Shown here: piece by piece, positions 1-52,625 of the stretch | Layout of the letters: each line of letters opens with the position of its first letter | How positions within the stretch are numbered: the stretch's first letter is position 1 | DNA from: Rhizaria sp. SCN 62-66 | Lineage: Eukaryota | Direction of reading: 5' to 3' | Assembly (NCBI GenBank): GCA_001724265.1 | Contig: MEDY01000073.1 | Location: 62,001-126,000, forward strand | DNA: 64,000 nucleotides | The notes under the pieces: generated by a model | What the model was told of the DNA's origin: nothing | Databases searched by the model: none | The model's input: the letters and a program-made list of their open reading frames with translations, nothing else | Program-made: the position numbers and the translations under genes

Positions 1-3000
1 CCCAGTCTGCCTCCGTGTCGTCGTCAGCGGCCGACGTTGACGCCGCCGTGGCTGCCGAGTCGGCCGCCCTGACGGCCGCGCAGTCGCAGGCGCGCGCGCA
101 GAGCATCTTTTCCCCGCGCGACCGCTTTGCGCTGCGCGGTTACCTGTCAGAGGCCACGCGCGCGCTCTCAGCAGACCTGACACAGTGCAGCGAGCTGCTG
201 GACACGGCAGACACGCTCGTCACGCTTGCGCAACAGCGGCGCCGCCTGCACGCACAGCAGCGCCGGCTCTTCCGCGAGTCGTGCCGCAGTGCAGGGCTCG
301 CGCGCGCGCTGCGGGCCACGGCGCGCGCGCGGCGCAGGGAAGAGCGCGCGCGCCGTCATGATCTGCGCGAGCGCACGGCCTGGTTTGGCGCCGACGGGAG
401 CGGCGGCGTCGTTGCGGCTGGCGCGGACACCGCCGCAGAGGCCGAGGCTGACGAGCGGGCCGCAGCGGAGGATGACGCCGAGTCGGACGCGGACGCTGAG
501 GACGCGGCTGCCGACGCCGAGGCCGACGCCGCTGCAGGGACTGTGGGCGTTGGCGCCGATGCAGACGCTGATGACGAGGACGAGGCGGAGCTGGAGGAGG
601 CCAAGGCCGAGGACGCGGTATTTGCGCTCGTGATGAAGGCCAAGGGCGAGCACGCCCGCGCTGTTGCAGTCGTCGCCGAGGGCGCGCGCATGCAGACCGC
701 GCTTGAGACCACGCTTAGATTCCGCAAGGATGCTTCAAGTTCTCCGCCGCACGACGGCGAGGGCGGCTCCACCGCGCGCACCGCCGTAAACACGGATGCT
801 GACGCTGATACTGAAGGTGTGGGCAGTCGCGAGTGTCTCCTGCCGCAGTCGCTGCGGCCGCCGCGCGTGCTGCAGCAAACCAAAGCTGCTGTAGGCGCCG
901 TGGTGCCCCTGCTGGCGTGGCTGCGTGCCACCGTCGCGGTGCTCAAGAGGAACAAGAAGACTGACGACGCCGACCCCAATTGTGTGAACGCCAGCGCGAC
1001 CCCCCCCAGTCCTGGCAGAAGTCGCGGTTCGCCTCGCGACAACGACGAAGATGCCGATGGCAGCTACGATGGCGGTGGCGGAGACGACGACGCTGACGAC
1101 TCCGGTGGTTTTGTGCGCATATCGCCGCGCGGTGACGTGAGCCTTGCGCCGTACGGCACGGGTGTGGATGCGGTGCGCGGCATCAGCCTGAGTCAAAGCC
1201 GCGTCGCACCTACGCCGCCGCGCGGGTCCCCCGGTGTGTCGCCGCCGCGGCCGCGCGCGCAGTCGCGGCTCTATCCGCGGTCTCCACCGGTGTCTTACGG
1301 GCGCCTGGCTGAGACTGAGGCCGAGGAGACTGCAGCAGCTGAGGCAGCTGCCGCAGCGGAGGCTGCCGACGTCGCTGCTGCAGCTGATACGGCTGAGTAC
1401 CTCCTGTTGCTGTCACAGGAGCAGGCTTCTTCGACGCCCTGCCGCAAGCCGCCGCAGACAGCGCCCGGCTATATGCGGGGCAATCCGAGTCGCCTGAGCG
1501 CTCGTGGCGCCAACAGCGGTGAGATCTCTGAGTTATCGGAACAGTTCCAGCAGTATCAGCAGAGCCCACAGCACGGCAAAACAACGTACGTCAATGCATA
1601 ACGCAGAAATGAAATCCCATGTTGCCTTAAGTGCCAATCAACTCGTTCACTCACAAAACCGTATATTTGTTATTTTTTATTTTGATTTGTCATGTTTTGA
1701 TCTGTCTTGTTTAGACCGCTTGTCAAATTGCCGCCCGGTCGTGTGAGCCTCAGCGCTTCGCGCCGGCCCCCTGCAGCAACGTTTGCCGCCACTGCTTCAG
1801 CGTCATCCACGGCCGCGGGCACCCCGCTGTCGCGCGCCCGCGCCCGCACCATGCCTTCCGGTCAGGATCTTTCGGGCGTTGCCGACAACGGTGCCCGTCG
1901 GAGGCACGCTGGGGACGTGCCCCCGCCGCCGCTGCCGCAGCCGCGCGCGCCCTCGTCCGTGTCACGCACGCAGCACAACGTTCAGCGGCGCGGGGGCAGC
2001 GCTACAGACGGCGATCTCAAAGGTACGGATGGACACATATTTATTTCCGAGACGTGAAACGCGCATCGATCGAGAATGCGCATCACATCTGCAAATGTGG
2101 AAACTTGTCGACCTAACATGTCTTCTGCTCTATCATTTCTTGTTTAGGTCTTGTCGCAGTGGACTACGCAAACATGCACCGCTCCCTCTCCCGCACCTCG
2201 CCGCTCCCAGCGCCCAAGCCGATTGTCGGCTCTGCCCCCCAGCACGGCGCGCGCGGCGGCGCCCCCGGCTTTCGACGCACGGTAAGCTTTGCACCGGCCC
2301 GCATGGATGCCGGCGCTAAAAGCAGTGACAATGGCGGTGGGAACGAACTCGGACACGCGCGCTACGGCCGCCGTCCCGCGCCGCCCGCGCAGAGCCCAGC
2401 GGCTGCGGCGGCCGCGGCGGGGCGTGGCGCGAGCCCCGACCGCGCGCGCAAGCCGCACTCGATCTCGGCCGCGCTCTCGCGCCTACAGCAGCAGCAGAAG
2501 CAGCTGTAGGTGCGCAGCAGCGCCGCCTCATCGCACAACTAGGGTTAGCGCTCGAATGCGCCGTCGAGTTCTGTGTTACTCGAGTAGCTACGTCAAGAGC
2601 AGCAGCAGGAGCATGAGCGCAAGCAATCTCAATATCGGCAGTCGCACATGCCTCGTGGACAGCGCGACTCACCTGAGAATGACTTTCGCGGACTCGGCGT
2701 TGCCGCTGTCAACGACTACATCCTGACTGAGGCTAGTGATCCTGCTTTCGCAGACAATTCCAATCGCGACGACAACACTGGTGTGTTCTCCCCTGCGACT
2801 GCATTTGCGAGTGCGCACAGCCCCAAATCTCCGCCTCCGCGGAGTCCGTTTGCCTTTGCCGCTGCTACGTCCCCCTAGGGGCGCACTCGTGGTCACACCC
2901 GCGGTCAGCAAGACCAGCGCGAAGGACTGGTGCGCCTCGTGCCGCACGGGAGCAACAGGCTGAATCACAACAACAACAATGACAGCGATGACGATGACGG

Positions 3001-3166
3001 CGACTGGGAGCTGTCGATCCCGGACGACCACACGAAGGACTGGCTCTGGAAGGACGACGTCGTTGCTGCGGAGCTCCCGCTCAAGCTCAAGACGCGCGCA
3101 GGGCTCGCACCCGACAGAGGGGCAGTTGGTGACGATGGCGAAGACAGAGGCGAGTGGAGTGAATAA
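1..3166 (+). CDS. Unknown low-complexity/coiled-coil protein, 5'-truncated; exons <1-1585, 1715-2022, 2148-3166; five in-frame TAG codons in the last exon
   Basis: ORFs 15-1601, 1707-2057, 2159-2509, 2648-2878 and 2930-3166 join into one frame using introns 1586-1714 (GTACGT..TTTAG) and 2023-2147 (GTACGG..CTAAC..TTTAG) and reading through TAG at 2507, 2540, 2546, 2585, 2876. Ends at TAA 3164 followed by AT-rich DNA. No family recognised. Confidence 0.7.
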
Positions 3167-3683: not shown

Positions 3684-5578
3684 ATGAGGGCCGCTAGTGC
3701 TGCTATCGCCATCCCAAAACGCGCCTCCACAATCGGTACGTGTGCAATCATCCCACCGTTTTCGTACAAACTACTCGTATTAATGTGTGCACCGCATCTT
3801 ACTTCGTCCATAATCCTTGTTTCATGTGTGAATCCTGTGTAGTGTTGATGGCGCCGACGGCTTCGAACCCCGACTCGCCGTTTAAGGTGCTGCTCCTCAA
3901 GCGCGCCTCCAAGGCCACCTTCATGCCCAACCTATACGTCTTCCCCGGCGGCGCCGCGGACTCTGCGGACGCGTCGGCGGCATGGGAGCGCGCGCCGCTG
4001 TCGCCGCCGGCGCATTCGTTCGCGGTGCCCGTGCTGCGCGATGCGGTGCAGCAGGAGACGGTGGGCGACCGCGTGTGCGCGCTGCGCGAGACTTTCGAGG
4101 AGACGGGCATCCTCCTCTCATCGGCCGGCTCCGCCTACGCGCGCTCTGTTGCGCTTGCGCAGCCGTTCCTCTCGCAGCACGTGCAGAGCCGCGTCGAAGA
4201 CCTCCTCGCGACCTACAACGCCGCTGCCGCCGCCGCCGAGGCCGCTGGCACGGCGCCGCCGCCGCATCCCTCGGCCGTGGCCGCCGCGGCCGCCGCGGCG
4301 GACCTGTCTCTGCCGCTGCACACGCGCGCGCAGAAGCGGGTGCTGACGTCTGGCGCGTTTTACCAGGCGATGTGCGAGGCCGCGGGGCTGGTGCCGCCCG
4401 TCGACGCCGTGCTGCCGCTCGCGCGCTGGGTCACGCCCAAGAATGAGGCCAAACGGTACGCAACATCGCGGCAGTGCAAACGGCGCGAATTCATCTGATT
4501 GCAACTTTCTCATGCGTGTTTTGTGTGCTCTATGTTTATTTTGCCTCTTTTATTTGACTGCTGTCAATGAGTCTTTCTTCTTTGTCACTCACGGGTTACT
4601 CACGCGTTGTCGTGTCTCATCTCTTGTTCTTGCGCCCGCAGTTTCGACACGTACTTTTACGCCGCGGCCCTTGCCGACCCTGTGTCGCACTTTGTCTCCG
4701 GCGCGTCGGGCTCCGCCGGCGCCTCGCCGGGCTCTTCCTCGGCAGCGCTGGCGCTCGACGAGGTCACCAGCTCGCTGTGGGCAACCCCGGGCGAGGCGCT
4801 GGACCTCTCGCGCGCGGGGCTCATCGCCTTCGCGCCACCGACGACGTACGTGCTCACGCAGCTGGCCTCGGCGCCCACTCTTGCCGCCGCCGTCGCCGCG
4901 CTCTCCGCCGCCAGCAGGGCCAGCCGCGGCCCCGGCGGCGGCGGCGCCACGACGGCCAAGCCCTTCTACCCGTACCACGCGACGCAAGTTGCCGTCAAGC
5001 CCGCGGCCGGCGAGGGCGGCGTCGCCCGGCCTGCGCCGCTGGCGCCGCTCTACACGGCCTCGCCGTGCGGCGCGCCCGCCCCTGGCGTCGCCGGCGCCAG
5101 CGCCAGCGCCGCCGCGCCCTCCACGGCCTCTGCTGCCGCGGGCGCTGCTGCTAGCGGCGCTGCTGCTGCGCCAGGGGGCGAGAGCGCGAAGCGCCCCGCG
5201 GCGCCGGTGCGGTACGTTGTGCTGCCGGGCGACCACGAGCACCCAGACTCGATCGCCGCGGCCGCTGCCACCGCGGCCCCCGCTGTCGCGCTTGCGAGTG
5301 GCTCTGGCGCGTTTGCGAGCGGCGAGATGGCGCCGTTTCTGCCGCTGCTGGCGAGCCGCACGGTGCGCACGTCCGCGACGGCGACGGCGGCTGACGATGC
5401 CCGTGCGGGCGCTGAGGGGACTGTGGGAGCGATCGGCGTGACCGGCGTGACCGGGGTGGCCGGGGTTATCATGGCGCCACTGCACCGGCTCGTGCCCGTG
5501 GGCAACGGCTGCGCATGGGAAGTCGTCGTGACGGACCCCGCCGCCGTGGCCGAGAGTTTGCTCCACGCGAAGGTCTAA
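3684..5578 (+). CDS. Nudix hydrolase, NUDT19-like (acyl-CoA diphosphatase type), 533 aa; exons 3684-3735, 3843-4455, 4642-5578
   Basis: Spliced product reads PKRASTIVL..KVLLLKRASKATFMPNLYVFPGG..ALRETFEETGILL..RWVTPKNEAKRFDTYFY..FAPPTTYVL, the motif order of NUDT19-type Nudix enzymes. Introns 3736-3842 and 4456-4641 are GT-AG, AT-rich and restore the conserved motifs in frame. Confidence 0.85.
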
Positions 5579-19958: not shown

Positions 19959-22900
19959 TCAGGCGTCACCGGCGGCCTTAGAGGCGTTAAGGGCGGCCAG
20001 CGCGGCGGCCTCCTCGGCGGCTGCCTTTTCCTTCATCCAGAGGATGAACTGCTCGGTCTTGTTGCGGCGGGCCTTCTTTTTGCCCTTAAGCTGCGCCACG
20101 CGCGCCTCCAGACTGGGCTCCAGGCGCCGCTGCGCGAGCGGGATATGCCCGTACAGCTCCGCGTAGGGGAAGGTGCCCGCACCCTCGACGAGCACACCGG
20201 GGCCAGCTGCCACAAGAGGCGCATCCGCATCGGCAACCGCAGGCGCAGGGGCAGCGGCAGCGGTGTGCGCCCAGGGGTAACGCGAGGGAGCCCTAAAAAG
20301 CAAACAGAAAAAAAGGGACAAAAGCGAACAAAAATAAAGAAAAGAGTCAGAACAGAGCTTGTGATAATGAGACTTGACAACGGGACTTAAAAGTTTGACA
20401 CATTTGCAACTCTAATTCTGATTTCGTTTCGAATTTCATATCCACGCACCTGGGAGTCTCGATCTGAAAGCCCCTGCAGCCGAGCGCGCGCAGCAGCGGC
20501 GCGTCGAGCGCAGTCTCGGCCGGGAACGTGGGCGTGACGCGCGACAGCGGCGCCGTGCGCAGCACGCGCAGCTCCCGCGGCGACGCGCCCAGGAAGGGCT
20601 GCATGGTGCTGTAGGGCATGAGGCCCTGGCGCACCATCGCGGGCGCGAGCGTCATAGCCGTCGCACCGGCCGGGACGGGGGTCACCACGCCGCCCGCGCC
20701 GCTGCTCACAAGCGCGCGCGCACTTATCGCGGTGCCGAGGCTCGCGGCGCTGAGGCTATTGCCAGCGGCAGCGGCGGCATCGCGCGCGGCGGCCTCGCGC
20801 GCGGCGACGTAGGTGCCCAGCGCGGAGCCCGCGGCGTGGGCCGAGACGAAGGACTCCACGGGCATGTGCTTGTGCTGCGCCTTGGCCTGCTTCGCCCCGT
20901 CGGTCGCCACTGCGGGCGCGGTCACCACGGCCGCGTAGATGTTGCCCGGCGTGCCCGTCTGCGGCCGCGCGGCGGGCAGCGCCGTCGCCCCGGTCATAAA
21001 GGCGCGCCCGGCGTTCAGCGCACACGCGTACGCCGCGGCGTCCACGGCGCCGTTGGCACCGGCTTCGGCGCTCTCGCCGCTCTCGGCGCTGGCACTGCTC
21101 CCGCCGCCGACTGCGGCGACGGTGCCGGGCAGCGCGGGCAGCGGGACGCGGCGCACGGTGGGCAGCATGGACCGCGCGAAAACGTCGGCGACGACGGCCC
21201 GCAGCGCAGCCTCGCGCGCGGTGCGGTGCAGCGTGGCCGCCGTGCGCGTCGCGGCGCCGGGCGACGTGACCCAGCGCAGCGACGGGTACACGCCGTCCCA
21301 CAGCACCAGCGGCGCGTCGGGCGCCAGCTGGTACACAGGCTTCGCGGGGAACTGTTAAGGAACAAACATAAAAAAGAGAGAATAATAACATGCATTAGAA
21401 ACATAAAATACGTTGATAGAAGGGGATACAGAATACAAGAAAATACACATTGCAAAATACGGCGTGTCGCCCAAGAGAGAACGCATTGTGTCGCTTTTTG
21501 TACCTTTTTGATGTCGAAGAGGTCCTTGACAATCTCCGGCGGCTCGAGGCCCTGGCCGACGAGGAAGAGCACGGCCATCATGCAGCGCACCTGGTGATAC
21601 AGGAACGCCTCTCCAGTCACCACGAACTCGCACAGCGTGTCTGCGGGCAGCACCACGGGCACCACGCTGCTCGCTGCGCTGCCATCACTCTCCCCATTGC
21701 CGTTGCCATTGCCGTTGCCGCTATCAGCGCCGGCGCTGGCGTTGACGCTGGGCTTGGGGCGGAGGCTGTAGGGCGCGTCGGGGCAAGGCTGCAGTGGGAC
21801 GCCCGTGGTGGTGACGAGCGGCGCGGCGCGCGCGGCGGCGGCCGCGGTGGCGAGCGGGACGGCCCCGCGCACGCAGTCGGAGTCGCCGGCGGCGGAGAAG
21901 ACAGGCCGCCACTGCTGCAGCGCCGACGCCGCGGCCGCGCCCGCGGACCCAGCCTCGCGCGGTGCCGCGGCGGGCTTGGCCGCCTTGGCGGGCTTGTCGC
22001 CGCCGAGCACGGCGGCGGCCGCGGCGTCCACGGCGGCGGCGTCGAGCGCGGGCGGCAGCGGCACCGTCGCGTCGCCGCTCGCCAGCTCCAGCGAGCAGCT
22101 CGGCAGCCCGGCGTCACTGCGCGCGTCACTGCCGGCCTTGTTGCCGCCCGCCGCCGCGCCGGCGTCGTTGCTGTTGTTGTTGCAGCCGCGGCTCGCGTCG
22201 GCACAGGCCGCGATGTCCTCCGCGGTGACCGCGGCGCCGGCGGCGAGCGAGAAGGTGTCCTGCACCGCGCAAGGCCGCACAACAGCACCACAGATGCGCC
22301 GCACAAAGTGCGTCACGGCCGCCAGGTCCATGTGGCACAGGTTGCGGAAGTCGTGGCGGCCCGTCAGGTAGCCAGCGGCGCGGTTCATGGCAGCCAGGTC
22401 CATGCCGTCGGCGTAGAAAAAGTACTTGTATGTGCGGCCCTCGCAGGAGAAGCGCGCCGAGAAGGACTGCGAGACGGGCGCCCAGGCGTGCACGCGGATG
22501 TCCGCGGGCAGGCGCTGGTTGAGCAAACTCACGTAGTCGATCTCGAAGGCGTCGGCCCATGCGTCGAAGGCCGCGTCGGGCAGCCCCGCGTCGGGGTCCG
22601 CGATCGTGGGGTCCTCGGCGCCTGGGCGCGCGAGCGTGTCGTCGTCCTCGTCGTCCTCGTCGTCGCGGTAGTCGTCCTCGCTCCCGTCGCCGTCGCCGTC
22701 GCCGTCGTCGCCGTTGGCGGTGCTGCACTTCGGGGCGGTGACGGGCTTGGCCTTGTGGTGCGAGTTGGCGATGCGGTAGACCTGGTTGGCCGCGTACGAC
22801 TCAAACAGCGCGCGCAGCTCGGCGCGCTTGGCCTCCGCGTCCGACGCGCCCGCCTCTTTGCTCTGCGTATAAGCCAGCACCAGCGCGTCCGTCTCGGACA

Positions 22901-27353: not shown

Positions 27354-30300
27354 ATGAGCGGCCCACCCCCGTTTCACCCACAGGGACCATTCTTTCCCGG
27401 CCTTCCTGACGGCCAGAACTTTGCCCACTCTGAAAGTGGTTTCTCATACAGCCAGAATACGCACCCCTACACCGGCTTTGTTCGTGGCGGACCCGCGCCG
27501 CAATGGGCTAGTGCCGGTGCTGCACTGACAAAGCTGATGACGCCGCGCGACCGGGCCTACTTGGCCCAAGCTCCGCCAGTGAGCGCCTTTCGTGATGCAT
27601 TCATGCCCTTCAACTACACCAACTACGCGCTGCCTCCTGCGCGCGCCCCACCGCGGATGATGAAGCGCCCGAACCCGCCCGGGGCGTAGCTTCAGCAACA
27701 ACCCGCGTTAATGTCACCACCGCCCCGTTACACAACTTCCCCGCCGTACTCACAGCAGCGTCATTTGCTCTCTCAACAGCGCGATCCTGTTCAGCATGAT
27801 GACGATGGCCTGCCCATGCTGCCTGTACCTACGAGTTACGGTGACGACAACTCCTTCGACTCCGCAACAGAGTCCCCGTTCGCGCCCCCGTTTTCCCCCC
27901 CACGCGCGCCTACTTCGCCAGCACCACAGCGCAGCAGCCGGTTTGGCTCGCCGGCCTCCGCCGCCGCCCGCGCGCGCGCCGCGCCCGTAAGCCCGCCCCG
28001 CGCGCTGGCTTTCTCCCAGCCCAGCGCCACCGGAGACAACGAGTTCTCGTTTGCGCGCGCCGCGCCGCTGGCCCTGGCGTCGCCCGCAGACCAGCGCTCT
28101 GCTATGGGCTTGCCGCCGCTCTCCACATCAACATCCTCCGGGCCCGTCCGCGCCGGCTCTGCGCCCGCCTCGCCGGCGCCGCAACACAGCCCTCCGCGCG
28201 CCGCGCCCGCCCCGTTTGCCGCGACGGGACCCTACGTTTCGCTGCGCGCCTCGGCGCTCGCAATCGGCGCCGTCGTCGCGCCCGTCGCGGATGCCGTCGG
28301 CGCGAGCGCGGTGGACTCCGGAGCAACCGCGGCCTTTGCGAGGGCGTGCGCGCGCGCGGCGGCGCAGGGCGGGCGCGCGACGCTGCTGCTGCTGTACCGC
28401 GACGGCTCTTCGTCCACGCGGCCCACGCTGCGCGCTCAGCGCAAGCGCTATCGCGGCTGGGTCCGCGACGCACTGGCCGCCGCTGCAGCCGCTGCAACCA
28501 CAGGCCACAGCGAAAGCGGCCACAGCGGCCGCGGCGGCAGCGCCGTGGCGCGGATGATGACGCCGCGACGCGGGCCCGCGTCCCCCGCGCCGCGCGGCGG
28601 GCAGGGCGGGCTGGGCTCAGCGCCCCAGTCGCCGGGTCCCACCGCGCTCGTCGACGCCGCCTCGCTTGCGGCCACGCTCGCGGCCGCCGCGCGCGCGCTG
28701 GCCTCCGGCGCGCCCCCGCCGCGACCGTTCGGCACGACGCGGTGCGCGGTTTCTACGGCCTCGCTGCGCGCCGCGTGCGTGCGCGCCGCGCTGGCGGGCG
28801 CCGCCGAGTCCGCGGCCGCCGCGGCGACCGACGCCGCTGTGGGGCTGCTGGCGGCGCCGGCGCTGGCGCGTCCGTGGAGCGCTGCGGACGAGGTGTAGGA
28901 GCTCTCAGTTGCGGGCCCGGGCGACGCGCTGGCGCTGCTGGTGCTGCTGCACGCGCCGTGCGTGCGCGAGCGCTGCGCCGGCGCCGACTGCGCGGGCCGC
29001 TGCGGGCACAGCGTCGCCGCGTTCTCGGCCACGGCCGCCGGCGCGGCCGCCAAGACGTGCCCTTGCTGCGGCGAGAGCGACGAGTTCGCGCTGGACGGCG
29101 ACTGCGGCGACTCCGGCGACGCCGACTTGGCGATCGCACCAGGGGCGTGCGCGAGCTTTGTGCTCCCGCTGGCTGACTGGAGCGATGCACCGGCTTTGTC
29201 GCCTGCTGTTGTGGACGCAACGCGCGCGCTTTGGACGCTGCTGCGCGCCCCGGGAGTCGCCAAGTGCATGCCCAACGCGCGCGCCGTGTTTGCCGCGCTC
29301 TCGCACACCGCGCCCGCGCCGCCCTTGGCCGCGCAGAACACCGCAGGCAGCAGCGGCGGCTGCGACGGCGGCGGCGTTGCGCGCACTGTGTGCGACCCGC
29401 TGCTGCTGGCGTGGCTGGCGCAGCCCGACTCGGTGCCGCCGCCAACCGCGCCCTTCAGTTGCCCCCGCCAGCAGCTCTGGCTCGGGCTGCTGCACCGACA
29501 CGCGCCCGGCGGCGCCCGCGGCAGCGCGCTGGCCGCCGCGGTCGAGGACGCCGTGCGCGCCGTGCGCGCAGGCGGCGCGGGCAGCGCGGGCAGCACGGGC
29601 AGCGCGGGGCCGTTGGTCCCGGAGGCGCAACTGCTGTTGGGCGACGCCGTCGCTGCGTGGCCGCTGTGGCAAGCGCTCTCGAGCTCACAGCAGCCGTCGC
29701 ACGCGCACGCGCGCATCGGCAGCAGCGTCTACACGAGCACAAACAAGAGTGGCACAGGCAGCAATGACGATGGCGTAGCTGAACTCTCCGCGCGAGATGC
29801 TCTGGCGCGCGACGTTGCGCTCAGTGTCGCGGCCGCAGCGGCAGCGCCGCTGGCTGACCTCTTCGGCGGCTCCGCGCCGGCGGCTACCGGCACTGTAGCC
29901 GCCGTGCCGGGCGCTGGCGCAGACCGCGGCCCCGGCGCGCCGGTGCGCGACGCGTGGGCCCGCGGCGCGTCGCCGGAGCTGCGCTGCTACTGGCGACAGG
30001 AGGAAGCCTTCCTGACGCGTGTGCTGGCGCCCATGGAGGCCCGCGGCGTGACTTTTGACCCGCGCGCTTTTACACGGGCGCGCGGCGCGGTCACCGCCGC
30101 GCTCGCCGCGCTGGAGCGGCGCGCGCTGGCCATTGCGGGCGCGCCGGCGCCGCTGCTGACGTCGCCGGAGCAGGTGTCGCAGGTCATGTACGACCGCCTG
30201 GGCCTGCCGCGGCTACGCGCGCCAGCGGCGTCAGCGGCTGCTGCGCGTGCGGCGGCCAAGCGGCGCGGCGGCGGCGTTGGATGCGGCGTTGGTGGCGCGG

Positions 30301-31969
30301 CCTACCACACGACGGGGCAGGCCGTAGTGGCTCAGCTGGCGCGCGCGGGCCACGAGTTCCCGCAACTCCTGCTGCGCTTTCGCGCGCTGCACAAGCACCT
30401 GCGCGGGTCCGCGGACCTCATGTTCATGCGCGCCACGGTCACCGCGGCCACGGTCACCGCGGTATGCGGGGGCAGCAACGGTGCGTGCAGCGCCAGCGCA
30501 GCAACGACCGGTACTGCGGCGGCCGGCACCGCGGCGGCGCTGGAGATGCTGAGCTAGCTCGGCAGCACCGACGAGTCAGACGAGGTTCAACGTGCGGCGA
30601 AGGCGACGCTGGTGCTGCACCCGCAGTGGCACCAGACGGCCACGGGCACAGGCCGGCTGTCGTGCTCGCGGCCCAACTTGCAGGCCACGCCGCGTCGCGC
30701 GAACGCGCCGGGCGGCAGCGTTGCAGCGGACACTGCGGCGGAAGACGACGCGGACGACCGCAGTGGTGGTGATGACGATGATGATGACGCCGACGTTGAC
30801 GTTGACACCGTCTACGCCGACGCCGACGGCACCGACGTCTCTGCAGCTGTATTGATATCCGAGAACAGCGCCACTACCGCGGATAACGAGCGCGCGCCCG
30901 ACCCCATGGCCGTGTCCCTGCCGAGCGTGCGCAGCGCCCTGGTCGCGCGCGCGGGCTGCGTGTTCATCGCGGCCGACTACAGCCAGATGGAGATGCGCGT
31001 GGCCGCGGCGCTGTGCGGCGACCCGCAGCTGGCGCGCGCGCTCTCCTCCGCGGGCGGGGACATGTACTGCGCGATGGCCGCGCAGTGCTTTGCGGTGCCG
31101 GAGCGAGACGTGACGCCCACGCAGCGTGATGCGGCCAAGACAATGTCGCTGGGTATTCTCTACGGCATGGGCACGGAACTGCTGGCACAAAAGGTACGCA
31201 ACATCACATTAACTTCAACAAAGACTCAATTGTCCTATGTGCAATGTACGTATGTTAACTATATCATGCGATGACTCACCAGAGTATCTCGTTTAATGAA
31301 TGGCTTTGAATTGTTTTGCAGCTGTCCGCAAGCTGCAGTGAGCGTGGATCCTCCCCGCAGGAGCTCATGACTGCCTTCAACACGACTTACCCGCAGCTGC
31401 GCACGTACGCCAAGCGCGCGACAGCGCTGGCGCTGCAGAGCGGCGGCGTGCGCACGCTCGCGGGCCGCCCGCGCTGGCTGCCCGCGCTGCGCAGCGGCGG
31501 TGCCCCGGCTGCGCGCGCTTACGCCGAGCGGCAGGTGCTCAACTCGATTGTGCAAGGCTCGTCAAGCGACATCATCAAGCGCGCAATGCTCCTCGTCGCT
31601 GCGCGCTTCCGCGCCCTTGCATTGCTGGTCCCTACTTGCTTGCCATTGCATAGCAGCGCTGCCGACGTCGGCGCAAGTGACAACGGCCGCGAGTGCTCGC
31701 TGTGGGCGCAGTGCGGCGCGGTGATGCAGCTGCACGATGAGGTCATCTACGAGGTCCCCGCGGCGCTAGCCGAGCGCGCGGCCGCCGAGGTGCGCGCCGC
31801 GATGGAGCAGGTGCCCGCGCTGTGGCAGCGCGCGATGGCGGCGCGGCGCGGCGCCAGCACTGCCGGCGCGACAGCAACCACTGACGCGTCGGAGGCGCCG
31901 GCGCTGATTGCATTTCCTGTCAAAGTCAAGGTGGGCCCGCGGTGGGGCGGCATGACGGCGCTGCCATGA
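27354..31969 (+). CDS. Family-A DNA polymerase, Pol nu/theta-like without helicase domain, about 1495 aa; exons 27354-31193, 31322-31969; in-frame TAG at 27687, 28896, 30555
   Basis: VLAPMEARGV, LTSPEQVSQVMYDRLGL, HPQWHQTATGTGRLSCSRPNLQ, motif A (ADYSQMEMR), motif B (RDAAKTMSLGILYG), AERQVLNSIVQGSSSDIIK, motif C (QLHDEV). The four upstream ORFs share one frame separated only by TAG. Intron 31194-31321 (GTACGC..TTGCAG). Confidence 0.88.
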
Positions 31970-32344: not shown

Positions 32345-33586
32345 TTACTCGAGCGGGTGATCAAAGGAGCCGCCCTTGAGTTTGACGTCGGTGAACCAGT
32401 CGATGAACTTAAGCGCGACGCCGATCTTGCGCTCCAGCCCGCCGTGCTGCCGCGCGACCTCGAGCAGCTGCGCGCGCACGTCGGCCACGTAGGCGGCCTG
32501 GATCTTGGCGTCCGCGGCCGCGCGGTCGAGGTTCTTCTGCAGGATCTGCTCCACGACGCGGTCGCGCTCGTCCAGCGTGCCTTGCAGCGACTCGAGCGAG
32601 GGCTTGCTGCGCATCGCCTCGGCCGCTGTGTCGAGCTTCGTCTCGAGCTTCTCGAACGCAGAGAGCGCGATGGCGTGCGCCTTGTCCATGGCCTCGACCT
32701 GCGCCGACAGCGCGCGCACGCGCGCAAGCGCAGCCTCGACGGCCTCCTGCGTCTGCAGCATCGCGCCCACGTCCTTCTGCAGCGCGTCGACGGGCGCGAC
32801 GACCTTGTCCGTCAGCCAGCCCAGCGCGGGTCGCAGCTGCAACTCCTCGTGCACGTGTTGCAGACGCTGCGCCACGGCCTCGCGGTCCTCCTTCTGCGCC
32901 AGCACGCGCGACGCCGTCACCACGGCCTCCTCCAGCTGCTCCAGCCGCGGCGCCGCGGCGTCCTGGAACTCGACCAGCCGGCGCAGCTTGTCACCCGCGA
33001 CGTTGAGCAGCGGCACCTCGACGCGGTCCACCTTGCATGCAAGCAGCTGCTGCATCGCCACGACCTCCTCCAGCAGGCGGTGCTGCGAGTCCTCGAGCGC
33101 GCTGACGATCGAGGCCGAGGCGTGCGATTTGCCCATCTCGTCACGGTGCAGTGCGAAGGCCTCGGCCACGTCATGCTTCAGCTGCACGAACTCGGCCGCG
33201 TCCGTCTTGAGCGCAACAGCCTCGAGACACTCCTGCAGCGCCACGCCCTGGGCCGCAATGCCCTCGGCGGAGCTCTCGATCTTGCGCCAGGCGCCGGTCC
33301 AGCCCGCCACCGTCTGCTCGACCTTGGCCAGGCGCTCATTGATCTGCGACGAGTAGGCGTCGAACTGGCGCGCTGAGAGCGAGTTGTGGCGCAACTCGTC
33401 TTCGAGACGCTGAATATGCGCCTGCTGCGCGTCAAGGCGCGAGACAAGGTTGTTCATCACCGACTGCAGCTTGAAGACGTTGATGAAGTCGTCGACACGA
33501 CAGTGCTGGTCCACGGCGTACGACGCCGCGCCCACGGGGCCGCCAGGCGCGGCAGGCGCATCGATGGGGGAGTGCATAGAAGCCAT
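32345..33586 (-). CDS. Coiled-coil protein of unknown function, 413 aa
   Basis: Intronless ORF with strong GC3 bias and heptad-like L/E/Q/A composition, flanked by AT-rich DNA. No family recognised. Confidence 0.8.
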   Translation of the reverse strand: MASMHSPIDAPAAPGGPVGAASYAVDQHCRVDDFINVFKLQSVMNNLVSRLDAQQAHIQRLEDELRHNSLSARQFDAYSSQINERLAKVEQTVAGWTGAWRKIESSAEGIAAQGVALQECLEAVALKTDAAEFVQLKHDVAEAFALHRDEMGKSHASASIVSALEDSQHRLLEEVVAMQQLLACKVDRVEVPLLNVAGDKLRRLVEFQDAAAPRLEQLEEAVVTASRVLAQKEDREAVAQRLQHVHEELQLRPALGWLTDKVVAPVDALQKDVGAMLQTQEAVEAALARVRALSAQVEAMDKAHAIALSAFEKLETKLDTAAEAMRSKPSLESLQGTLDERDRVVEQILQKNLDRAAADAKIQAAYVADVRAQLLEVARQHGGLERKIGVALKFIDWFTDVKLKGGSFDHPLE

Positions 33587-34228
33587 ATGCGCACAAAAAC
33601 AGACAGAGTAGCTGTACACAACTGTTTATCAGCGATGCTTGCTTCAAGAAAGTCTTAAAGAGGCTGCGGGTGAAAGGAAACAGAGTGTGAAGGTGAGTGG
33701 CAGAGAGAGGGTTAGTGGTGATCAGACTCAATGAAGGTCCACTACGACAGCAGTATAATTAAAGTAATTCACGTTGTACGTTATTTTTGTACAGAATCAA
33801 CGGATGACTTGCTAATTTGTCGATTATGGAGTGAGTTAATTCAGTTTGAGAATCGCCGTTAGTGGAAACTCCAAACTAGCCGTTGACTGGTGAGTAGTGG
33901 TGAGAAAACAAAAACTGCTTCAAGTTTGACCGATGACCAAGTCGAAGTCAAACTTTGGAGCTAGAAAGCGCAGTGTTTTTTACGACTTTTTAGCAGACAT
34001 AATCTGGGTTTAATTACTTTGTAACAACTAGTTATTATATTTATCTTTCGCTAGTGTGCTCAATACTCCGTGAAATAAGGTCTCATTTGATCCAACCCAC
34101 TATCCACAGCTCAGCTTATTCCCCAGGCGTTTGTTCTGCTGTTGCGGAAAAGAAGTATGCACACGTGTATAGTCCAGGCAGTCCGTTTTTTTTAACACTA
34201 CTTCTCTTCCAGATCTTATACAGCTCCA

Positions 34229-36767
34229 ATGAACCACCATGGAGCTGAACGTCACGAGCTGACGGAGTACGAGGAAGCGGTGCTTCGCTTACAGACTGCG
34301 ATAGGTCGTGTAACAGATCTTGCGTCAGGCGTGCTAGCCATAACGGAGCTTAACAATGCGTGTTCAACCGACTACATTATCACATACATTGACATGATCC
34401 GAGACAGTCAGGTCGTTCTGCTGCTTCTTCAGTCGCTTACGCTCTCAAGTGACGCAAACTCCCCAGATGCGAACGCAGTCGAGCGAGTCCGCATCATCAT
34501 TCGCTTGTTTAACACTTTAATCACGTTAACGGACAATACTGATCTGTTCATTGAGTGTGGTGCGGCTGAGAAACTGATTGCTTTTCTGCCAGGTATCGAA
34601 CACGTCAGCGCAGCAGCTGATATTCTCAAGATGGTGGTTATGCTTGTGCGCCAGTCACCTTGCACCTGCGACTTCTATTGCGCTAGAACGCGTGCGGCTG
34701 CATATGTTCAATGTCTCCACACATGAGCAGGAATCGTTCAATACGAACGATGATGCGAACTACCACATCGCACTGTGCAAGACTCTCTTCGCACTCTTTT
34801 CAGGCTGTCGTACTAAAGCGACCGGCTCAGCATCATCCCCACTTCCGTACGCTGTGGCGTCACCCTTTGTCCCACTGGTGCGCAGCATTATTTGTAGCCC
34901 CTCATTGCGCAGTTTAACACCCCAAGATGATGATTCTGAAACTCGGCCACGCAATCATGTCTATGCGGTAATGTGCAGTCTGTTCGAATGTGGTAGCAGC
35001 GACGCGTCCAACGCGCGGCGCCATATTGATCTTGTTGACTTTGTGGCAAGCACCGACTTTGACCCGATGCTTGACCTTGGCGATGCAAACTCTTTCCAAC
35101 GGTTGCACAAGTTTCTAAACATGTTGAACGACGATATGTTTGTCCGCGCATTCTCGGACGAGCGTGTTGAGCGTTTCCTTCGTAACATTCGTCCGAATGA
35201 ACATTACCCTCTGGAGCGGCTCAGTTTGTTTATGGATATATTCAAGACCCTAACAACACGACTTCCTGAGTTTGCCCAAAAGGGCTTATGGACGGACGGC
35301 TTGAGGCACATTGTTGGAAGTATCAAGGAGGTTTTCGAAGATCGGCACTTGAAATCTTACAACCTGCTGCCAAGCAACACGATTCAAGTGTTTGAAAATA
35401 TTCTCAGCACGTCAACTGATGCATTGCACGCGGGGCTGCAGCTGCTTGCCAGTGGTGCTGTCAGCGTATGCTGTACTTTTCTTCTGCGTTTTCTACTGGC
35501 ACGCCGGGCCACAGAGGAGGCGCTCGGCAATGTATGGCCGAACACGGTGCAACTTGCGCAAATACTACGCTTTCTCCGTGTGCTGGTCAGCACTAGCGAC
35601 ACGTCGCCTGGCTCCGATGGGTGCAGCACGACGTCGCGCAACCCCTTTGTGGTCGAGTTCATTACCCATCGCGGTCCGCAAGCACTCGAGCTGTTGCGTT
35701 TTGACAACTGCTTGCAGTGGCACGATAGTGACACGGTGTCCCTTTAGTTTTCTGAGCTACGCACACTGCTTGTGAGCATGGGTGTAGCTGCGCCTGTCGA
35801 TGCCAAAACAGAAGAGCTGCGGCTGCGAACTATTGCCGAGATGCGCGAGTTTGTGCAGCCGCATCGTGGTTGGCAAGCTGCGTTTGACGCTGAGATTGCG
35901 TCTAGCTTGGAAGAGAACAGTTTTCCGCGATTGCCGACGTTTGATTCTCGCACTCGTAGCTCCGTGATGCCTCCCGCCCGTCCGCGAACCACTGCGGCGC
36001 CGTCTGCCGCATTGCTGGCTTTACTGCAAGCTATGGCACGTGAACGCCTTCTTATGCATGTCCATGGCAAGATGTAAGCACGAGGTGTGTTTGACGATGT
36101 GCGGGTGCTAATGGAGATCTCTACGAGTAAATATGACGCGTGGTCCCCCCAACGAGACAAAAAGATCACATACCGCATGGTGATCCGACTTGACGACCAA
36201 CGTTTCCCTTGCAACTCCGCTCATTTCCGTGTTGCGGCACATCAGAAGTCTCTTGCTAACATGCTCCACACTTGTTTTGTGCCTCCCGGTGAATGTACAG
36301 CGGCATCTCTGCCTTTTGTCACACTGTCCAACCGTTTGAGCATCCAGAATAACCCATGCGCCACTGCGCCTCTGTCACTTCCGGGCAGCGACACTGTTTA
36401 CGGTGAATATACAGAGTCTACACCAGGCGCTGATCCGGCCGACGTCGCGGAATTTTACCCGGTCGGGACGGTGCTCATGTGTCCCGCCTCCGTTGCTCCC
36501 GAGGTGCATGCTTCTTCTCTTACACCATGGTTCATCGTCTTCAAGCCCTGTCCGGTAAGCCTGCTGCGTGGCGCCGTACCCGTTGGCCGTGTGATCTCGT
36601 GTCCTGCACGGGCAGAGCGTAACATCGGAAATGACATATTCGACAACGCACTCTTGAACATTTTAACGATGCGTTGTGAGGCGAAGAGCTGCAAGTCTGG
36701 CATCCGAGACGCCGATATATCAATTTGTCCTATAATAAGCACAGACGTTTTTCCTCGTGAAGTGTGA
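34229..36767 (+). CDS. Divergent alpha-helical (armadillo-like) protein or decaying gene; frame break near 34590-34690, TAG at 35745, TAA at 36075
   Basis: ORFs 34578-35747, 35772-36077 and 36087-36767 are in one frame; 34229-34726 is in another. Segments FIECGAAEKLIAFL and LLASGAVSVCCTFL resemble ARM repeats. Weak GC3 bias. Gene structure uncertain. Confidence 0.45.
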
Positions 36768-44200: not shown

Positions 44201-46896
44201 GCCTGGAGTGCGGCGGCGTCGGCGGCCTGCGCCGACTCGGCGGCGGCGACGGCTGCCTGACGCCGGCGCGCGGCCTGGCCCGCGGCCGCGTCGGCCCACG
44301 ACGAGCCCGCGCCCGCACCCGCGCCAGCGCCACCGATCGAGCCGGAACCGGAGACGGAGCTGGGAGAGGTCGCCGACGAAGTTGCAGCCACAGCGGCCGC
44401 GATCGCGGCAGCGGTGTGGTCGTCTGCGGACGCAGTGGTGGAGCCGCTGGTCGAGTTGGCGAGAGAGAGCGTCTGCACGGCCTGCGCGTCCGCGGCGACG
44501 GCCGCCGCCGAGGTGGGCGTGCCCACGTTGCGCGGCGACTTAGATGTGAACTGCGCCAGCGTCATCACCGCCGAGTCGCTGTCCACCAGCCCAGCGCCAG
44601 TGGCCGGACCGGAGCCCGAGCCCGAGCCGGAGCCTGAGCCGGAGCTTGTGGAGCTGGTGGTGGCGACAGGCGAGGTCGCAATCTGCTTTCTCTCGGTGTT
44701 ATCGCCCGCGCCATTGTTCGCTGCTGTGTCGCAGCCGCTCATTGTGTTGGACGTCGCGAGGGTGAGCTCGGTGATTGCCTTGGCGGGCCGCTGCTGCTTG
44801 CTGCCGTTGCCGTTGCCGGTGTTCTCATCCTCATCGTCCTCCTCGTCGTAGAACTCGTCGTAGCCCTCGGCGATGCGCCCCACACCGCCCGCGCCGGCGC
44901 CTGCGACCGCGCCGGGGACGGCAAAGGAGGGCCGCGCGTGGACCGAGGCGCGGCGCGGGGCCGTGAACTCGTTGAAGGCCGCAGTCACCACGTCCACGCT
45001 CGCGCTGGGGCTCGGCGCCGCGCATCCGGGGCTGGTGCAGTCAACCTCCGCGCCGCTGGGGCTCGCCGCCGCGGACGGGGACTGCGACGCGGCCGCAGCA
45101 GCGGCGGCGGCGGCGCCCGACTCGGCCGCGGTCACGCTCGCGGTCGCGCTGGGCTGCGGCTCCGGCGGCTCGCTCTGCGCGGCCGCGGCGATGGCGGCGA
45201 GCTCGGCCGCCGTGTAGATCATTGCGTCCGAGTCGCCGAAGAGGTCCGCGAAGTTCTGCTGCAGCAGTGCGTCGTCCTCAGCGTCGGTGCCCAGCGCGTT
45301 CTCCTCGTCGTTCTCGCCGCCCTCCGCGCCGCCGCCGCCGGGCCCGCGCGCGGCGTCGCAGTCGCTACCGTCGCTGTCGTCGGCCTCGCTGTCGTTCACG
45401 AACTCCAGCTCGTCGCCCGCGGCGCCGTGGCGGCGCCGGCGCGCGCGGTCGTGCTCGGCGGGCAGCGGGACACCCGCGGCGGCGGCCTGCAGGGCCTCGC
45501 TGGTGTGCGCCTGGCCTAGGTCAGGCCCGGGGCCCGCGCGCTTGAGTCGCATCTGCCGCTCCAGCTGCCAGTTGAAGACGCGCGCCATGAGCTCGCCAGA
45601 GTCCGCCCCCAGCACTCGCTCCGCAGCCTCCATCGCCTCGCGCGCCGCCGCGTCCGCGCCGGAGGCCACGCCAAACAGCGACACGGTCACGCCGCCCGCG
45701 GCGCCGCTTGCGCCGGAGGCGGAGCCGTTGGTATTGTTGCCGTTGAGATTGTTGAAGCTGCCGGCCGCGCTGGGCGACGCCGCGCCCGACGGGTCAGAGC
45801 CCGAGCCGGAGCCGGCTCCACTGGCAGCGCCCGCAGCGGCGGCGCCGTTGGCGGAGCCCCACCCGGAGGGCGCAGGAGAGGCGAGTCCGGCGGCGGCCTG
45901 CGCGGCGGCGGCGGCGTCGCCCCCAGCCGCGGCCACGGCGGCGGCGGCTGCGGAGGCGACCTGCTGGCGGTAGTTGTGGCCGGCTTCCCAGAGCGCGACG
46001 CCCTCATCGGGCGACACGGAAGAGTCCCGCAGCAGCGCGCGGACCTCCTGCGCGGAGCAGCCCTGCGCGTAGCCCAACAGCACGCGCAGCAGCAGGGGGT
46101 TGTTGCGCGCGGGCTGCGCGAACTCGAGCGTCTTGGCCAGCACCGTGTTGACCAGCACCTCAGTCAGCATCGTCATGAGCGCCGCGCAGCTGCGGTCCGA
46201 AGCGCCCAGTAGGCGGTGCAGCAGCGCGGGCACGAGCCGGTACAGGTACGTCGTGAGCGCGCGCGCGTCGACTGCGCCCGGGTGCATCGTGGGGAACTGC
46301 GTGCAGTCGCGGTGCGCCGTGTATACGGCCTCGCGCGGCGACAGCGGGACAGGCTCGCCGCGGTGCCGCGCCGCCGACTGCGCGACCTTAAGCGCCGTGG
46401 TGGCCGTCCACGCCGTGTTGGCCGGGTCCGCCACAATCGCCCCGCGCAGCGCCTCCTCCGCGCGCGCGGCCGCCGAGGTAACCAGGAAGTGCGCCCAGTC
46501 AATGTGCGCAGCGCGCATGGCCACGGTGCCCACGCAGCGGTCCGCGATGGCGCGGATGTCGTTGAGGAGCGTCTCGTTGTGCGAGATTGAGGGCACGTAC
46601 CACGTCTCGACGTAGTACGCGATGCAGAACTCCACGACGCGCCACAGCGAGGACCGCAGCGCAGGATCCGCCACCGTGTCGTCCAGCGTCAGGTACCGCT
46701 CGTGCACCACGGGCGGCGCGTCGCGCACGCCCGGGCGGCCGCCGCCGCCGCCGCCGCGCTCTGAGTTGCGCGACGAGTCGCCGGCCTTGGCCTCGATGGC
46801 GAGAACCTAGAGCTCGCTGAAGTAGACCATTAGGTACGCGGCAACGCACACGGACGCCACAATCAGGGCGCCAAACTCGAACAACAGTGAGAGCAT
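41251..46896 (-). CDS. PXA-PX-Nexin_C sorting nexin (SNX13/14/19/25, Mdm1-like), 1881 aa, with in-frame TAG at codon 30 (46807-46809)
   Basis: N-terminal TM (MLSLLFEFGALIVASVCVAAYLMVYF), PXA (YYVETWYVPSIS..LTEVLVNTVL), PX at about 43560-43950 (WVIYRRYSHFEALH..FPTKRVFGSFDAPFIQARRLELQAYI), Nexin_C (LLDEVLEL..WVRRQI..IWP..LFPEM). No RGS domain seen. Confidence 0.9.
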
Positions 46897-49489: not shown

Positions 49490-50413
49490 TCAGGCCATCA
49501 AGGCGTACGTATGCATGGGCAGCTTGGCCGCCAGTGCCCGCACCCGCGCAGCAGCCTCCGTCGCCGCGCGCGTGGCCGCGGTCGGAGCGACCACGGGCGT
49601 GGCCACAGTCAATGCGGCAGCGGCCGCGGCAGGGGCAGCGGCGTCGGCCGCGCCCGCGCTGCTGTCCTCGAACGAGCCGAAGTCGCCGAAGTCTTCCTCC
49701 TCAGCAGCAGGAGCTGCAGGCGCGGCAGACACAGGCGCAGCAGGCGCAGCAGGAGCAGCAACGGGGGCGGGGGCGGGGGCAGCGTCGTCGTCGAAGGCGC
49801 CAAAGTCGCCGAAGTCTTCTTCATCTTCGGCCTTGGCGGCGGGCGGCGCCGCGACGGCCCCGGCAGCGGGGGCGGCCGCGGCGGCGGGGGCTGCGGCAGC
49901 GGGCGCCTCATCGTCGAAAGCGACGTCGAACGCGCTGTCGTCGTTGCCGCCGCCGCCGTTGTCACCGTTGCCGTCAGAGTCGGGCGAGTTGATGAAGTCC
50001 TCGAAAGACAGCGACGTCTCCAGCCCGGCGTCGTCGGCCGCGGCCGCCGCAGACGCGGTCGCCAAGGCGGGCACGATGGACGGCACCGACGACTTGGGTT
50101 TGGTCGCCGGCGCGGCCGCAGCGGCGGCAGGCTTGCTCTGGGCACTTGCACTCGCGGTCGCGGTTGCGGTCGCGTGCGTGTCGATCTTGTACTTCTTGGC
50201 GAACTCGCTGAGCATGTCCTGCGCGTAGACCGCGCTGCGGCCGTCGTCCTGAGCGACGGTCACGCCGCGGTCCTCGTCGTAGATGTCGTCCTCGTCCGCC
50301 AGCGCGGCGCCCGCAGCTCCGAGGTCTTCGTCGCCGCCCGGCGCGGGCAGCAGCCCGCCAAAGCCAGACGGCGGCGGCGCCAGCGGCAGTGCGCTCAGCC
50401 TCGCCACGGCCGA

Positions 50414-50481
<68 letters not shown>

Positions 50482-52625
50482 GGACCGCAACAGGGGCTGC
50501 AGTAGCAGACGCGGAGGCGGGCTCCTCGGCAGAGGCGCCCTCGAAGCCCCAGTTCTCGTCGTCGTCATCGTCTTTGTCTCCGGCGGCGACGGCGGGCGCA
50601 GGAGCAGCAGCTTCGGGCGCGCCTTCGTCTGGAGCGTCGAAGTCGCCGAACTCTTCATCATCGTCGTCATTATTGCTGTTTTTGGTGCTGCCGCTGCTCT
50701 CGGCAGCGTTGTCCACAGTCGCTGCCTCGGCAGCGGGCTCAGTCGCTGCCTCGGCAGCGGGCTGGGCAAGCGCGGCCGCGTCGGCAGCCAAATCGAACTC
50801 GGCGTCCATCGCCGCGGGAGACGCGGCCGCGCCGGAGTCCGCGGATTCGAACGCGGCGTCGCCGAACTCAGCGTCCTCGTCGTCGTTTTCGCAAACGGCA
50901 GCAGCGCCAGAGGTGGCCGTGGTGTCGACGGTGGACGCACAGCTCTCGGCCGCCGCCGCCTCGGCCGCAGCCGCCTCGGTCACCGCCGCCTCGGGCTCCG
51001 GGGCGACTGCGTCCGCCGCAGCCGCAGCTGCAGGTTTAAACTCGGTCTCCGCAGAGGCGGAGGCAGAAACAGGAGACACCTCGACCGGCGCCGCACCGGC
51101 GTAGGAGAACTCGGCGCCGCCGTCACCCGCAGCCGCAGACGCGCTGCCGCAGTCGGTGGCAGCAGCCGTGACCTCGGGCTCCGTCTCGATAGGCTCCGTT
51201 ACGCCAGCCTCAGCCTCGGCCTCGGCCTCGGTCTCGGTCTGGGGCTGGGGCTCGGTCTCTGCACCGGAGGCAGCGGCCGCGGGCTACGCAGCGGACTCCG
51301 TAGCGGCGGACTCCGTAGCGGTGAACTCCGTAGCGGCGGACTCGAACGCGGCGCCCTCAAATTCGTCGTCGTGGACCTCGCCGACGGTGGTCGCCGCACC
51401 GAGGTCAGCGGCATCGGCATCAGCATCCGCCTCGACAGCGGCCGCAGCGGCCTCAGCAGCGGCATCTTCAGCATCTGCAGCTGCCTTTGCTGCAATAGCA
51501 GACGCCTCGGCAGCGGCAGCTGCAGCAGCGGCAGCGACAGCCTCCTCCTCAGCCTTGACGCGAGCAGCCTCTTCAGCAGCAGTAGCCACCGCAGCAGCTT
51601 CTGCAGCTGCAGCTTCCTCAGCAGCAGCGGCCGCTGCGGCAGCGGCATCTTCTTCAGTCTTTTTGGCAGCCTCCGCTGCTTCTGCAGCGACCTTAGCCTC
51701 GGCAGCAGCAGCCTCAGCGGCAGCAGCTGCCACCTCCGCCTCAGCGACCGCCTTCGCCTCAGCGACCGCCTTCGCCTCAGCGACCGCCTTCGCCTCAGCG
51801 TCCGCCTTCGCCTCTGCTGCCTCAACCTCCGCCGCATCAGCAGCCTCTGCGGCGGCGGCAGCCTCTGCGGCGGCGGCAGCCTCTGCGGCGGCGGCAGCCT
51901 CTGCGGCGGCGGCAGCCGGCAGCCTCTGCGGCGGCGGCAGCCTCTGCGGCGGCGGCAACCTCTGCGGCGGCGGCAGCCTTTGCGGCGATAACGCGCGCCG
52001 TCTCAGCTTCTGCCTCAACAGCCATGCGAGCCGCTTCGGCCTCCTGCTCGGCCTTGATGCGCGCCGCCTCAGCTTCTGCCTCGGCAGCAGCCGCGGCATC
52101 AGTCTCGGCCTTAGCTTCGGCAGCCGCCTTAGCCGCAGCATCAGCTTCAGCTTTTGCAGCAGCCGCCTCGGCCTCGGCCTTTGCAGCAGCTTCCGCATCA
52201 ACGATTGCAGCTGCGTCGGCGCTCACTGCACCCGCGGCATCGTCAAAGCCCCATCCCTCCTCCTTGTCGCCAGCGGTGAGGGGTGCCACAACAGGGGCTG
52301 GTGCCACGACGGACTCTATGACAGGATCGGATCCCGCTGGAGAGGCTTCGAAGTCGCCAAAGTCATCGTCTTCGCTAGCTACATGCCCCATAAGACTCAC
52401 TGCAGCAGCTGGGGTAGGAGCAGGCGATGCGGGGGTTTCCGGCACGGCAGCGGCCGCCTCATCAAAGTCGAAGTCAAAGTCCTCTTCCTTGGCAACTGCT
52501 TTGTCAGCATCAGCAGGCGCTGGAGCGGGAGCGGAAGCGACATCAGGGCTGGCAACACCGTGCTGCACTGAAGGCTGGGTCGGCACTTCGTCGTCAAAAC
52601 CGAAGCCCCAATCTTCCTCAGCCAT
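49490..52625 (-). CDS. Acidic Ala/Glu-rich protein with repeated DFGDF/WGF motifs (aftiphilin/gamma-synergin-like adaptor-binding protein); one frameshift at about 51915 and in-frame TAG at 51284
   Basis: ORFs 52625-51837, 52201-51284 and 51079-49490. The last two are in frame across one TAG; the first two are offset at a truncated repeat unit. Motifs EDWGFGF, DDFGDF, EGWGF, EEFGDF, ENWGF, EDFGDFGAF, EDFGDFGSF. Confidence 0.7.
50415..50480. repeat. (GGCGCG)11 microsatellite encoding an Ala-Pro repeat on the minus strand
   Basis: Perfect hexamer array read directly. Confidence 0.95.
51735..51985. repeat. Coding 18-bp tandem repeats (AEAKAV x3; EAAAAA about x7) with one truncated unit
   Basis: Units CGCCTCAGCGACCGCCTT and GGCAGCCTCTGCGGCGGC; a 7-nt partial unit GGCAGCC at 51911-51917. 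Confidence 0.9.

Follow-up and report, generated by a model that had tools for sequence, protein, structure and literature searches.

Nuclear genetic codes that give UAG and UAA different meanings are rare, with two non-ciliate cases and a few from ciliates described in the available portions of the literature (PMC5304391, PMC11687900). In the fornicate Iotanema spirale UAG encodes Gln while UAA and UGA terminate translation (Panek et al. 2017, PMC5304391), and in the rhizarian exLh (Sainouroidea) UAG encodes Leu, with 384 in-frame UAGs in 71 genes whose ends comprise 56 UAA and 15 UGA codons (PMC5304391). NCBI table 15 (TAG = Gln, TAA and TGA stops) and table 16 (TAG = Leu) hold such assignments. 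Here we analyse a 64-kb stretch of DNA, positions 62,001 to 126,000 of contig MEDY01000073.1 (64,000 nucleotides; hereafter the window), for which an earlier sequence-only reading had proposed that TAG is a sense codon and that TAA and TGA remain stops. This proposal is supported by a six-frame stop scan, by homology spanning the TAGs of a DHHC palmitoyltransferase gene and a family-A DNA polymerase gene, by the position of the start codon in a sorting-nexin-like gene, by 13 of 13 gene ends, and by the presence of the TAGs in other assemblies. We consider it very likely that UAG is a sense codon in this organism and that UAA and UGA are its stops. The precedents listed with the proposal were correct but incomplete, as phyllopharyngean ciliates add three UAG-only events, one reassignment to Leu in a single clade and two to Gln (McGowan et al. 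2024, PMC11687900).

Compared with these systems, the window organism is probably a new member of the known, rare UAG-only class, which it fits on three features: a sense UAG, no UAG at gene ends, and UAA and UGA as stops. It resembles I. spirale as a non-ciliate nuclear genome in which UAG alone is sense and UAA and UGA terminate. Unlike the window, however, I. spirale is an anaerobic endobiotic flagellate known from its transcriptome, with the meaning of UAG proven at many conserved sites; UAG is far rarer in the window, which also differs in having a bacterial-type family-A polymerase gene. With exLh the window shares UAG alone inside genes and UAA or UGA alone at their ends, but UAG is abundant in exLh, where it is less used in highly expressed genes, hinting at weaker decoding (PMC5304391). 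Phyllopharyngean ciliates share the UAG-only reassignment, the discovery of which drew in part on metagenome assemblies, and their tRNA-Sup(CUA) genes are known; these ciliates prefer UAA as stop, whereas the window uses TAA and TGA about equally (seven and six ends). The window also belongs to a contig of at least 64 kb and has 65% GC, multi-kilobase genes and AT-rich spliceosomal introns. In this it does not look like a ciliate macronucleus, which is AT-rich and in phyllopharyngeans consists of gene-sized chromosomes. A literature search, with subscription journals mostly outside its coverage, found no non-ciliate UAG-only code beyond exLh and I. spirale.

In-frame TAGs and gene ends

Since genes should not be defined by their own stops, the scan covered every stop triplet in all six frames, scored with a codon log-odds measure trained on five long open frames. 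The 2,681 triplets comprised 1,500 TGA, 627 TAA and 554 TAG (TAG 21%; TGA 2.7 times as common as TAG). To count as bridging, a stop had to lie in the frame that outscored the other five across 50 codons both before and after it, at more than 0.15. Eight did so, seven TAG and one TGA (binomial p = 1e-4 for 7/8); the lone TGA, at 27282, lies just upstream of the polymerase start (four other stops before; marginal scores of 0.16 and 0.17). All six bridging stops without a second stop within 50 codons on either side were TAG (2876, 25371, 28896, 30555, 46809 and 51286; p = 7.8e-5). Conversely, stops with a clean change from coding to non-coding sequence numbered nine, five TGA and four TAA with no TAG among them. 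Within 12 provisional gene models (15,337 codons) the internal stops were six TAG, no TAA and no TGA. Since TAA and TGA had set the bounds of these models, two of which were later redrawn for introns, the count is partly circular.

Each of the 12 in-frame TAGs put forward by the sequence-only reading is present where that reading placed it (as CTA on the plus strand for the two minus-strand sites). The assignment to six genes stands, the first of them (2117-3166) being exon 3 of a three-exon gene, gene A (Table 1). On inspection site by site, seven TAGs were graded strong or good, and five (2540, 2546, 2585, 27687 and 35745) turned out weaker than claimed. At the five strong sites (25371, 28896, 30555, 46807 and 51284) the gene's own frame has the highest codon-usage score of all six before and after the TAG, with no second stop inside 50 codons; GC at third codon positions (GC3) is 0.78-0.96 on either side of them. 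The 29 codons upstream of TAG 46807 score 0.70, and the opposite-strand frame at TAG 51284 scores -0.28. GC past the TAGs remains at 56-79%. The base that follows them is G, C or T, and they have no downstream context in common.

TAGs 2507 and 2876 were graded good because two verified introns determine, through their phases, the frame of gene A exon 3. With exon 1 ending at 1585 (phase 2) and exon 2 at 2022 (phase 1), an acceptor at either 2147 or 2159 places exon 3 in the frame with five TAGs. This exon has no TAA or TGA until 3164, where GC drops to 39%. The three TAGs between 2507 and 2876 are weak because a GTGCGC..CAG piece of 132 nucleotides (nt; 2510-2641, 58% GC) could remove them. 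TAG 27687 is weak because translation could begin at ATG 27711, leaving the TAG in the 5' untranslated region.

Homology was found on both sides of the TAG in two genes. The DHHC gene aligns before TAG 25371 to residues 11-97 of human ZDHHC9 (transmembrane segments TM1 and TM2 and the DPG motif; E 1.9e-7) and after it, in the same frame, to residues 139-208 (the DHHC cysteine-rich domain; E 7.6e-22). In the polymerase gene the block before TAG 30555 matches residues 124-217 of Taq Pol I and the one after it residues 266-296. The JGI/IMG protein P0013 (663 residues), which comes from a related uncultured organism and is 64% identical to the window polymerase, is uninterrupted at the position of this TAG. 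In the PXA-PX-Nexin_C gene TAG 46807 is preceded by the sole ATG (46896) and by an N-terminal hydrophobic helix, and followed by the start of the PXA domain; the first Met downstream of the TAG is already within that domain. A TAG that forms the mere 5' boundary of an open frame cannot explain the DHHC, polymerase and sorting-nexin cases. A PDB search with the N-terminus of the PXA gene gave no relevant match, and in a database search around TAG 25371 the gene's own truncated open reading frame (ORF) was the sole match. P0013 is as Ala-rich as the window protein, lacks the intron at 31194, and begins only at the polymerase domain (window 29940-31969).

For gene ends, 15 had been claimed (seven TAA, eight TGA); counted after intron correction of two models, they number 13, seven TAA and six TGA, and the absence of TAG holds (0/13). 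The 150 nt past each of these ends have 29-49% GC. In the E2 gene the UQ_con profile (1-139 of 140) stops 27 residues before the TAA, with 38% GC after it, and the Nexin_C domain likewise stops 27 residues before its TAA; both TAAs are therefore taken as true terminators. The same holds for the TGA of the polymerase gene, because the C-terminus in front of it (...IAFPVKVKVGPRWGGMTALP) matches that of the relative P0013; 47% GC follows. In the UAR = Gln codes (UAR, UAA and UAG) of many ciliates, hexamitid diplomonads and some ulvophycean algae a UAR-box stop also became sense, as in the window. However, in those codes TAA is sense as well and TGA is the sole stop, while in the window TAA ends seven of the 13 genes and occurs nowhere inside the 15,337 codons of the partly circular count above. 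In one ciliate, UAA reportedly encodes Lys and UAG Glu.

Table 1. Positions of genes, in-frame TAGs and verified introns in the window
Feature	Position	Strand	Details
Gene A	begins before window	+	three exons; exon 3 carries five TAGs
Gene A intron	1586-1714	+	34% GC; GTACG donor; with 2023-2147 flanks exon 2; phases join frame 0 to frame 2
Gene A intron	2023-2147	+	43% GC; GTACG donor
TAGs, gene A exon 3	2507, 2876	+	good
TAGs, gene A exon 3	2540, 2546, 2585	+	weak
Gene	3698-5578	+	contains one intron
Intron of gene 3698-5578	4456-4641	+	186 nt; 47% GC; phase keeps frame 2 on both sides
TruA-type pseudouridine synthase gene		-	Pfam match; two introns
Pseudouridine synthase intron	21352-21503	-	
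Pseudouridine synthase intron	20293-20449	-	
DHHC palmitoyltransferase gene	24462-26825	+	Pfam match
TAG, DHHC gene	25371-25373	+	strong; loop between TM2/DPG and DHHC cysteine-rich domain; codon score 0.55 before, 0.52 after
Family-A DNA polymerase gene	ends at TGA 31967-31969	+	Pfam match (DNA_pol_A)
TAG, polymerase frame	27687-27689	+	weak; near 5' end of frame; upstream score only 0.19
TAG, polymerase gene	28896-28898	+	strong; N-terminal half; GC3 0.93 before, 0.96 after; score 0.38/0.29
TAG, polymerase gene	30555-30557	+	strong; insertion in thumb region
Polymerase intron	31194-31321	+	128 nt; 37% GC; GTACGC..TTTTGCAG
Coiled-coil gene	32345-33625	-	
TAG, doubtful frame	35745-35747	+	weak; 50%-GC frame 34578-36767, which also contains TAA 36075
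PXA-PX-Nexin_C sorting-nexin-like gene	46896 down to 41251	-	Pfam match
TAG, PXA-PX-Nexin_C gene	46807-46809	-	strong; codon 30; score 0.59/0.52
E2 gene	ends at TAA 49121-49123	+	Pfam match (UQ_con)
TAG, acidic Ala-rich gene	51284-51286	-	strong; gene 49490 to about 51900; top score of six frames, 0.61/0.55
Ankyrin-repeat protein gene			Pfam match
DUF7906 membrane protein gene			Pfam match

Introns, other assemblies and competing explanations

As controls for the appearance of introns we used six spliceosomal ones that had been verified either from the reading-frame phase or from the continuation of a Pfam profile across the intron; DNA_pol_A, for instance, ends at profile position 238 in polymerase exon 1 and picks up at 235 in exon 2. 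They measure 125-186 nt, with 34-47% GC. Their donors are GTACG(T/G/C), GTACAA or GTGCGT and their 3' ends mostly T-rich; in-frame codon scores run from -0.55 to 0.14, with 0.14 the maximum in any frame, and over all three frames they contain 8 TAA, 2 TAG and 10 TGA. Five of the six donors start with GTAC, an unusual consensus.

UAG could still be a stop if the TAG-bearing stretches were removed by unconventional in-frame introns, or if UAG were edited to a sense codon in the RNA. Spliceosomal introns occur in these very genes, one with the donor GTGCGT, GTGCGC-type donors lie near some TAGs, and excision of the 2510-2641 piece could remove three TAGs at once. We therefore collected every in-frame GTRNG..YAG piece of 50-300 nt able to enclose each TAG. 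There is no such piece around TAG 25371, and those around 28896, 30555, 46807 and 51284 have 58-83% GC and coding-frame scores of 0.27-0.64, in contrast to the AT-richer verified introns with their non-coding scores. The 2510-2641 piece scores 0.04, but its removal would still leave TAG 2507 as the last exon codon. Moreover, introns should bear TGA and TAA as often as TAG, yet TAG alone interrupts the frames. Splicing or editing is thus a very unlikely explanation.

That the TAGs are real in the DNA is borne out by contigs of other runs, studies and collections that keep them. Contigs of data sets X2 and X3, which may be one data set as their piece lengths are nearly equal (a 3-nt difference in one pair), match the window exactly across TAGs 27687, 28896, 30555 and 35745, and X4, which stems from a different study and shows strain differences at other positions, retains 27687 and 35745. 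Three database ORFs from four ENA/JGI contigs, one with another GE-repeat length, terminate in ...DGISGE, that is, at TAG 25371; protein P0011, from a JGI contig with an upstream indel, terminates at TAG 30555, and the window ORF terminating at TAG 28896 is recorded from Logan and ENA. The origin of the window sequence in a metagenome assembly invites the suspicion that the TAGs are assembly or sequencing errors or pseudogene damage, and the frame 34578-36767, with both a TAG and a TAA, could be a pseudogene. Against this, the same TAGs recur in these contigs, nothing but TAG interrupts the frames (frameshifts are absent, as is TGA despite being 2.7 times commoner), and codon bias is retained on both sides of the TAGs, which leaves damage or error barely credible as an explanation. 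Between the X4 contig and window 32378-32519, in the coiled-coil gene, the differences fall almost solely at third bases; they represent synonymous variation between strains, so that a second strain or close species exists.

The frame 34578-36767 on the plus strand (730 codons, about 50% GC) is open but for two stops, TAG 35745 and TAA 36075, and matches no Pfam family; both alternative frames are stop-rich. TAA 36075 lies within GTAAGC, and both stops are unchanged in the contigs of X2/X3 and X4. Intron explanations for the two stops were tried and none was convincing. The frame may be a pseudogene, two genes, a gene with an odd intron, or a case of occasional UAA read-through.

Several observations weigh against the assignment of UAG as sense with UAA and UGA as stops. 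TAA 36075 is unexplained, and the statement that TAA is only a stop is accordingly not airtight. The data comprise one 64-kb window with about 14 genes, and 0/13 TAG ends is weakly significant by itself. None of the TAGs falls at a conserved alignment column. Four of them lie inside 27 codons (2507-2587, a Gln-rich stretch), an unexpected crowding given the rarity of the codon. Among the contigs listed for the poly-A RNA run X5, none covers a TAG; an X5 contig is colinear with the genome over the verified polymerase intron (window 30997-31388), i.e. unspliced, so that this library contains DNA or unspliced RNA and cannot show the form of the mRNA. Finally, in the 15,337 codons there are 6 TAG against 523 CAG and 84 TTG, several-fold or more below a settled synonymous codon.

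This scarcity suggests a recent reassignment, or inefficient decoding with UAG kept scarce by selection. UAG might instead have a dual meaning, as a leaky or context-dependent stop read through in genes by a near-cognate or weak suppressor tRNA and terminating some genes elsewhere in the genome. The rarity of UAG (6/15,337 codons) is what inefficient decoding would lead one to expect, just 13 gene ends were sampled, and context-dependent stop/sense codes exist in some ciliates (PMC11687900). However, TAG ends none of the 13 genes, the TAGs share no following context (next base G, C or T), and a merely leaky stop would have to be passed two or three times for each polymerase molecule (at 28896, 30555 and perhaps 27687), a very inefficient process. 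We accordingly see little room for a dual meaning. UAG absent from gene ends, amounting to only about 0.04% of codons and several-fold or more below a settled Gln or Leu synonym, led us to a further and tentative reading, namely an independent early-stage capture of UAG in a lineage without a known departure from the standard code, in which the amino acid might be neither Gln nor Leu; we think it possible, if on balance doubtful.

The amino acid at UAG and the source organism

By analogy with the described UAG-only codes, a sense UAG would be decoded by a cytoplasmic tRNA with anticodon CUA that inserts the residue, most likely Gln or Leu to judge from those precedents, and eRF1 would have lost recognition of UAG or be outcompeted for it. 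The 64-kb window holds no tRNA gene, no Rfam match and no eRF1 gene.

Several TAGs lie within Gln-rich stretches and several adjoin Leu. In a MAFFT alignment the residue of P0013 opposite TAG 30555 is Ser, within a variable insertion, and the region of TAG 28896 is not alignable. Internal repeats offered no informative copy of any TAG context, and neighbour-residue statistics gave a weak and inconsistent signal with two training frames mis-set; neither was retained as a guide to the amino acid. As a rough estimate, Gln would be about as probable as all other residues together, with Leu at half that weight and the remaining amino acids jointly on a par with Leu.

The window represents the nuclear genome of a GC-rich, uncultured microbial eukaryote that occurs in wastewater and bioreactor metagenomes; the window DNA is contained in bioreactor, wastewater and activated-sludge metagenome runs of several studies. 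Further proteins of the organism are recorded in the protein collection from contigs of 91 kb and 443 kb. Overall GC is 65%, with exons at 60-77% (GC3 0.8-0.96) and introns and spacers at 29-49%, and about 14 eukaryotic genes lie on both strands (Table 1). On the minus strand, 53465-64000 is occupied by an open frame that continues past the window end; it exceeds 3,511 codons, is strongly biased in codon usage and matches no Pfam family. The product of 49490-51900 (minus strand), also without an assigned family, is acidic and Ala-rich, and its repeated motifs of the (D/E)FGDF type resemble short linear binding motifs. The E2 gene, whose family follows from the UQ_con profile, is presumably Rad6-like.

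Searches brought up no close relative that has a name. In a comparison with solved structures the polymerase matches bacterial Pol I (Taq, 2e-28) better than Pol theta (1e-18), and a word search returned bacterial Pol I matches alone, at 34-46% identity and with no taxonomic signal. A scan of metagenome contigs with the window polymerase found no relatives. The same kind of scan with P0013 found 31 loci, its own contig not among them, the best being JGI metagenome contig L003, which over 1-2058 carries polymerase exon 2 and the adjoining coiled-coil gene of the same organism as the window; the organism is thus present in a JGI sample too. With the E2 protein, a genome contig scan gave only two distant matches to cyanobacterial metagenome-assembled genomes (32-36% identity), an atlas search gave fungal and oomycete E2 clusters without resolution, and in its cluster at 90% identity the window E2 is the sole member; an atlas search with window gene D gave no usable match. 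A sainouroid affinity, as a relative of exLh, was considered and left unsupported, and no evidence marked the organism as a rhizarian. Rosculus is abundant in wastewater plants (PMC8827150), but Rosculus vilicus, the only sequenced sainouroid genome, has 37.7% GC (PMC10770858) against 65% in the window.

Gene callers that use the standard or bacterial code cut the proteins of this organism at each TAG, and the truncated pieces are already in public collections. Codes that split UAG from UAA bear on the long-standing question of why the two codons are usually coupled and on how eRF1 and suppressor tRNAs separate them. If true, early-stage capture would represent a natural intermediate state in the reassignment of a stop codon, and a case in a GC-rich organism in which UAG is still scarce would show how a stop codon is captured.

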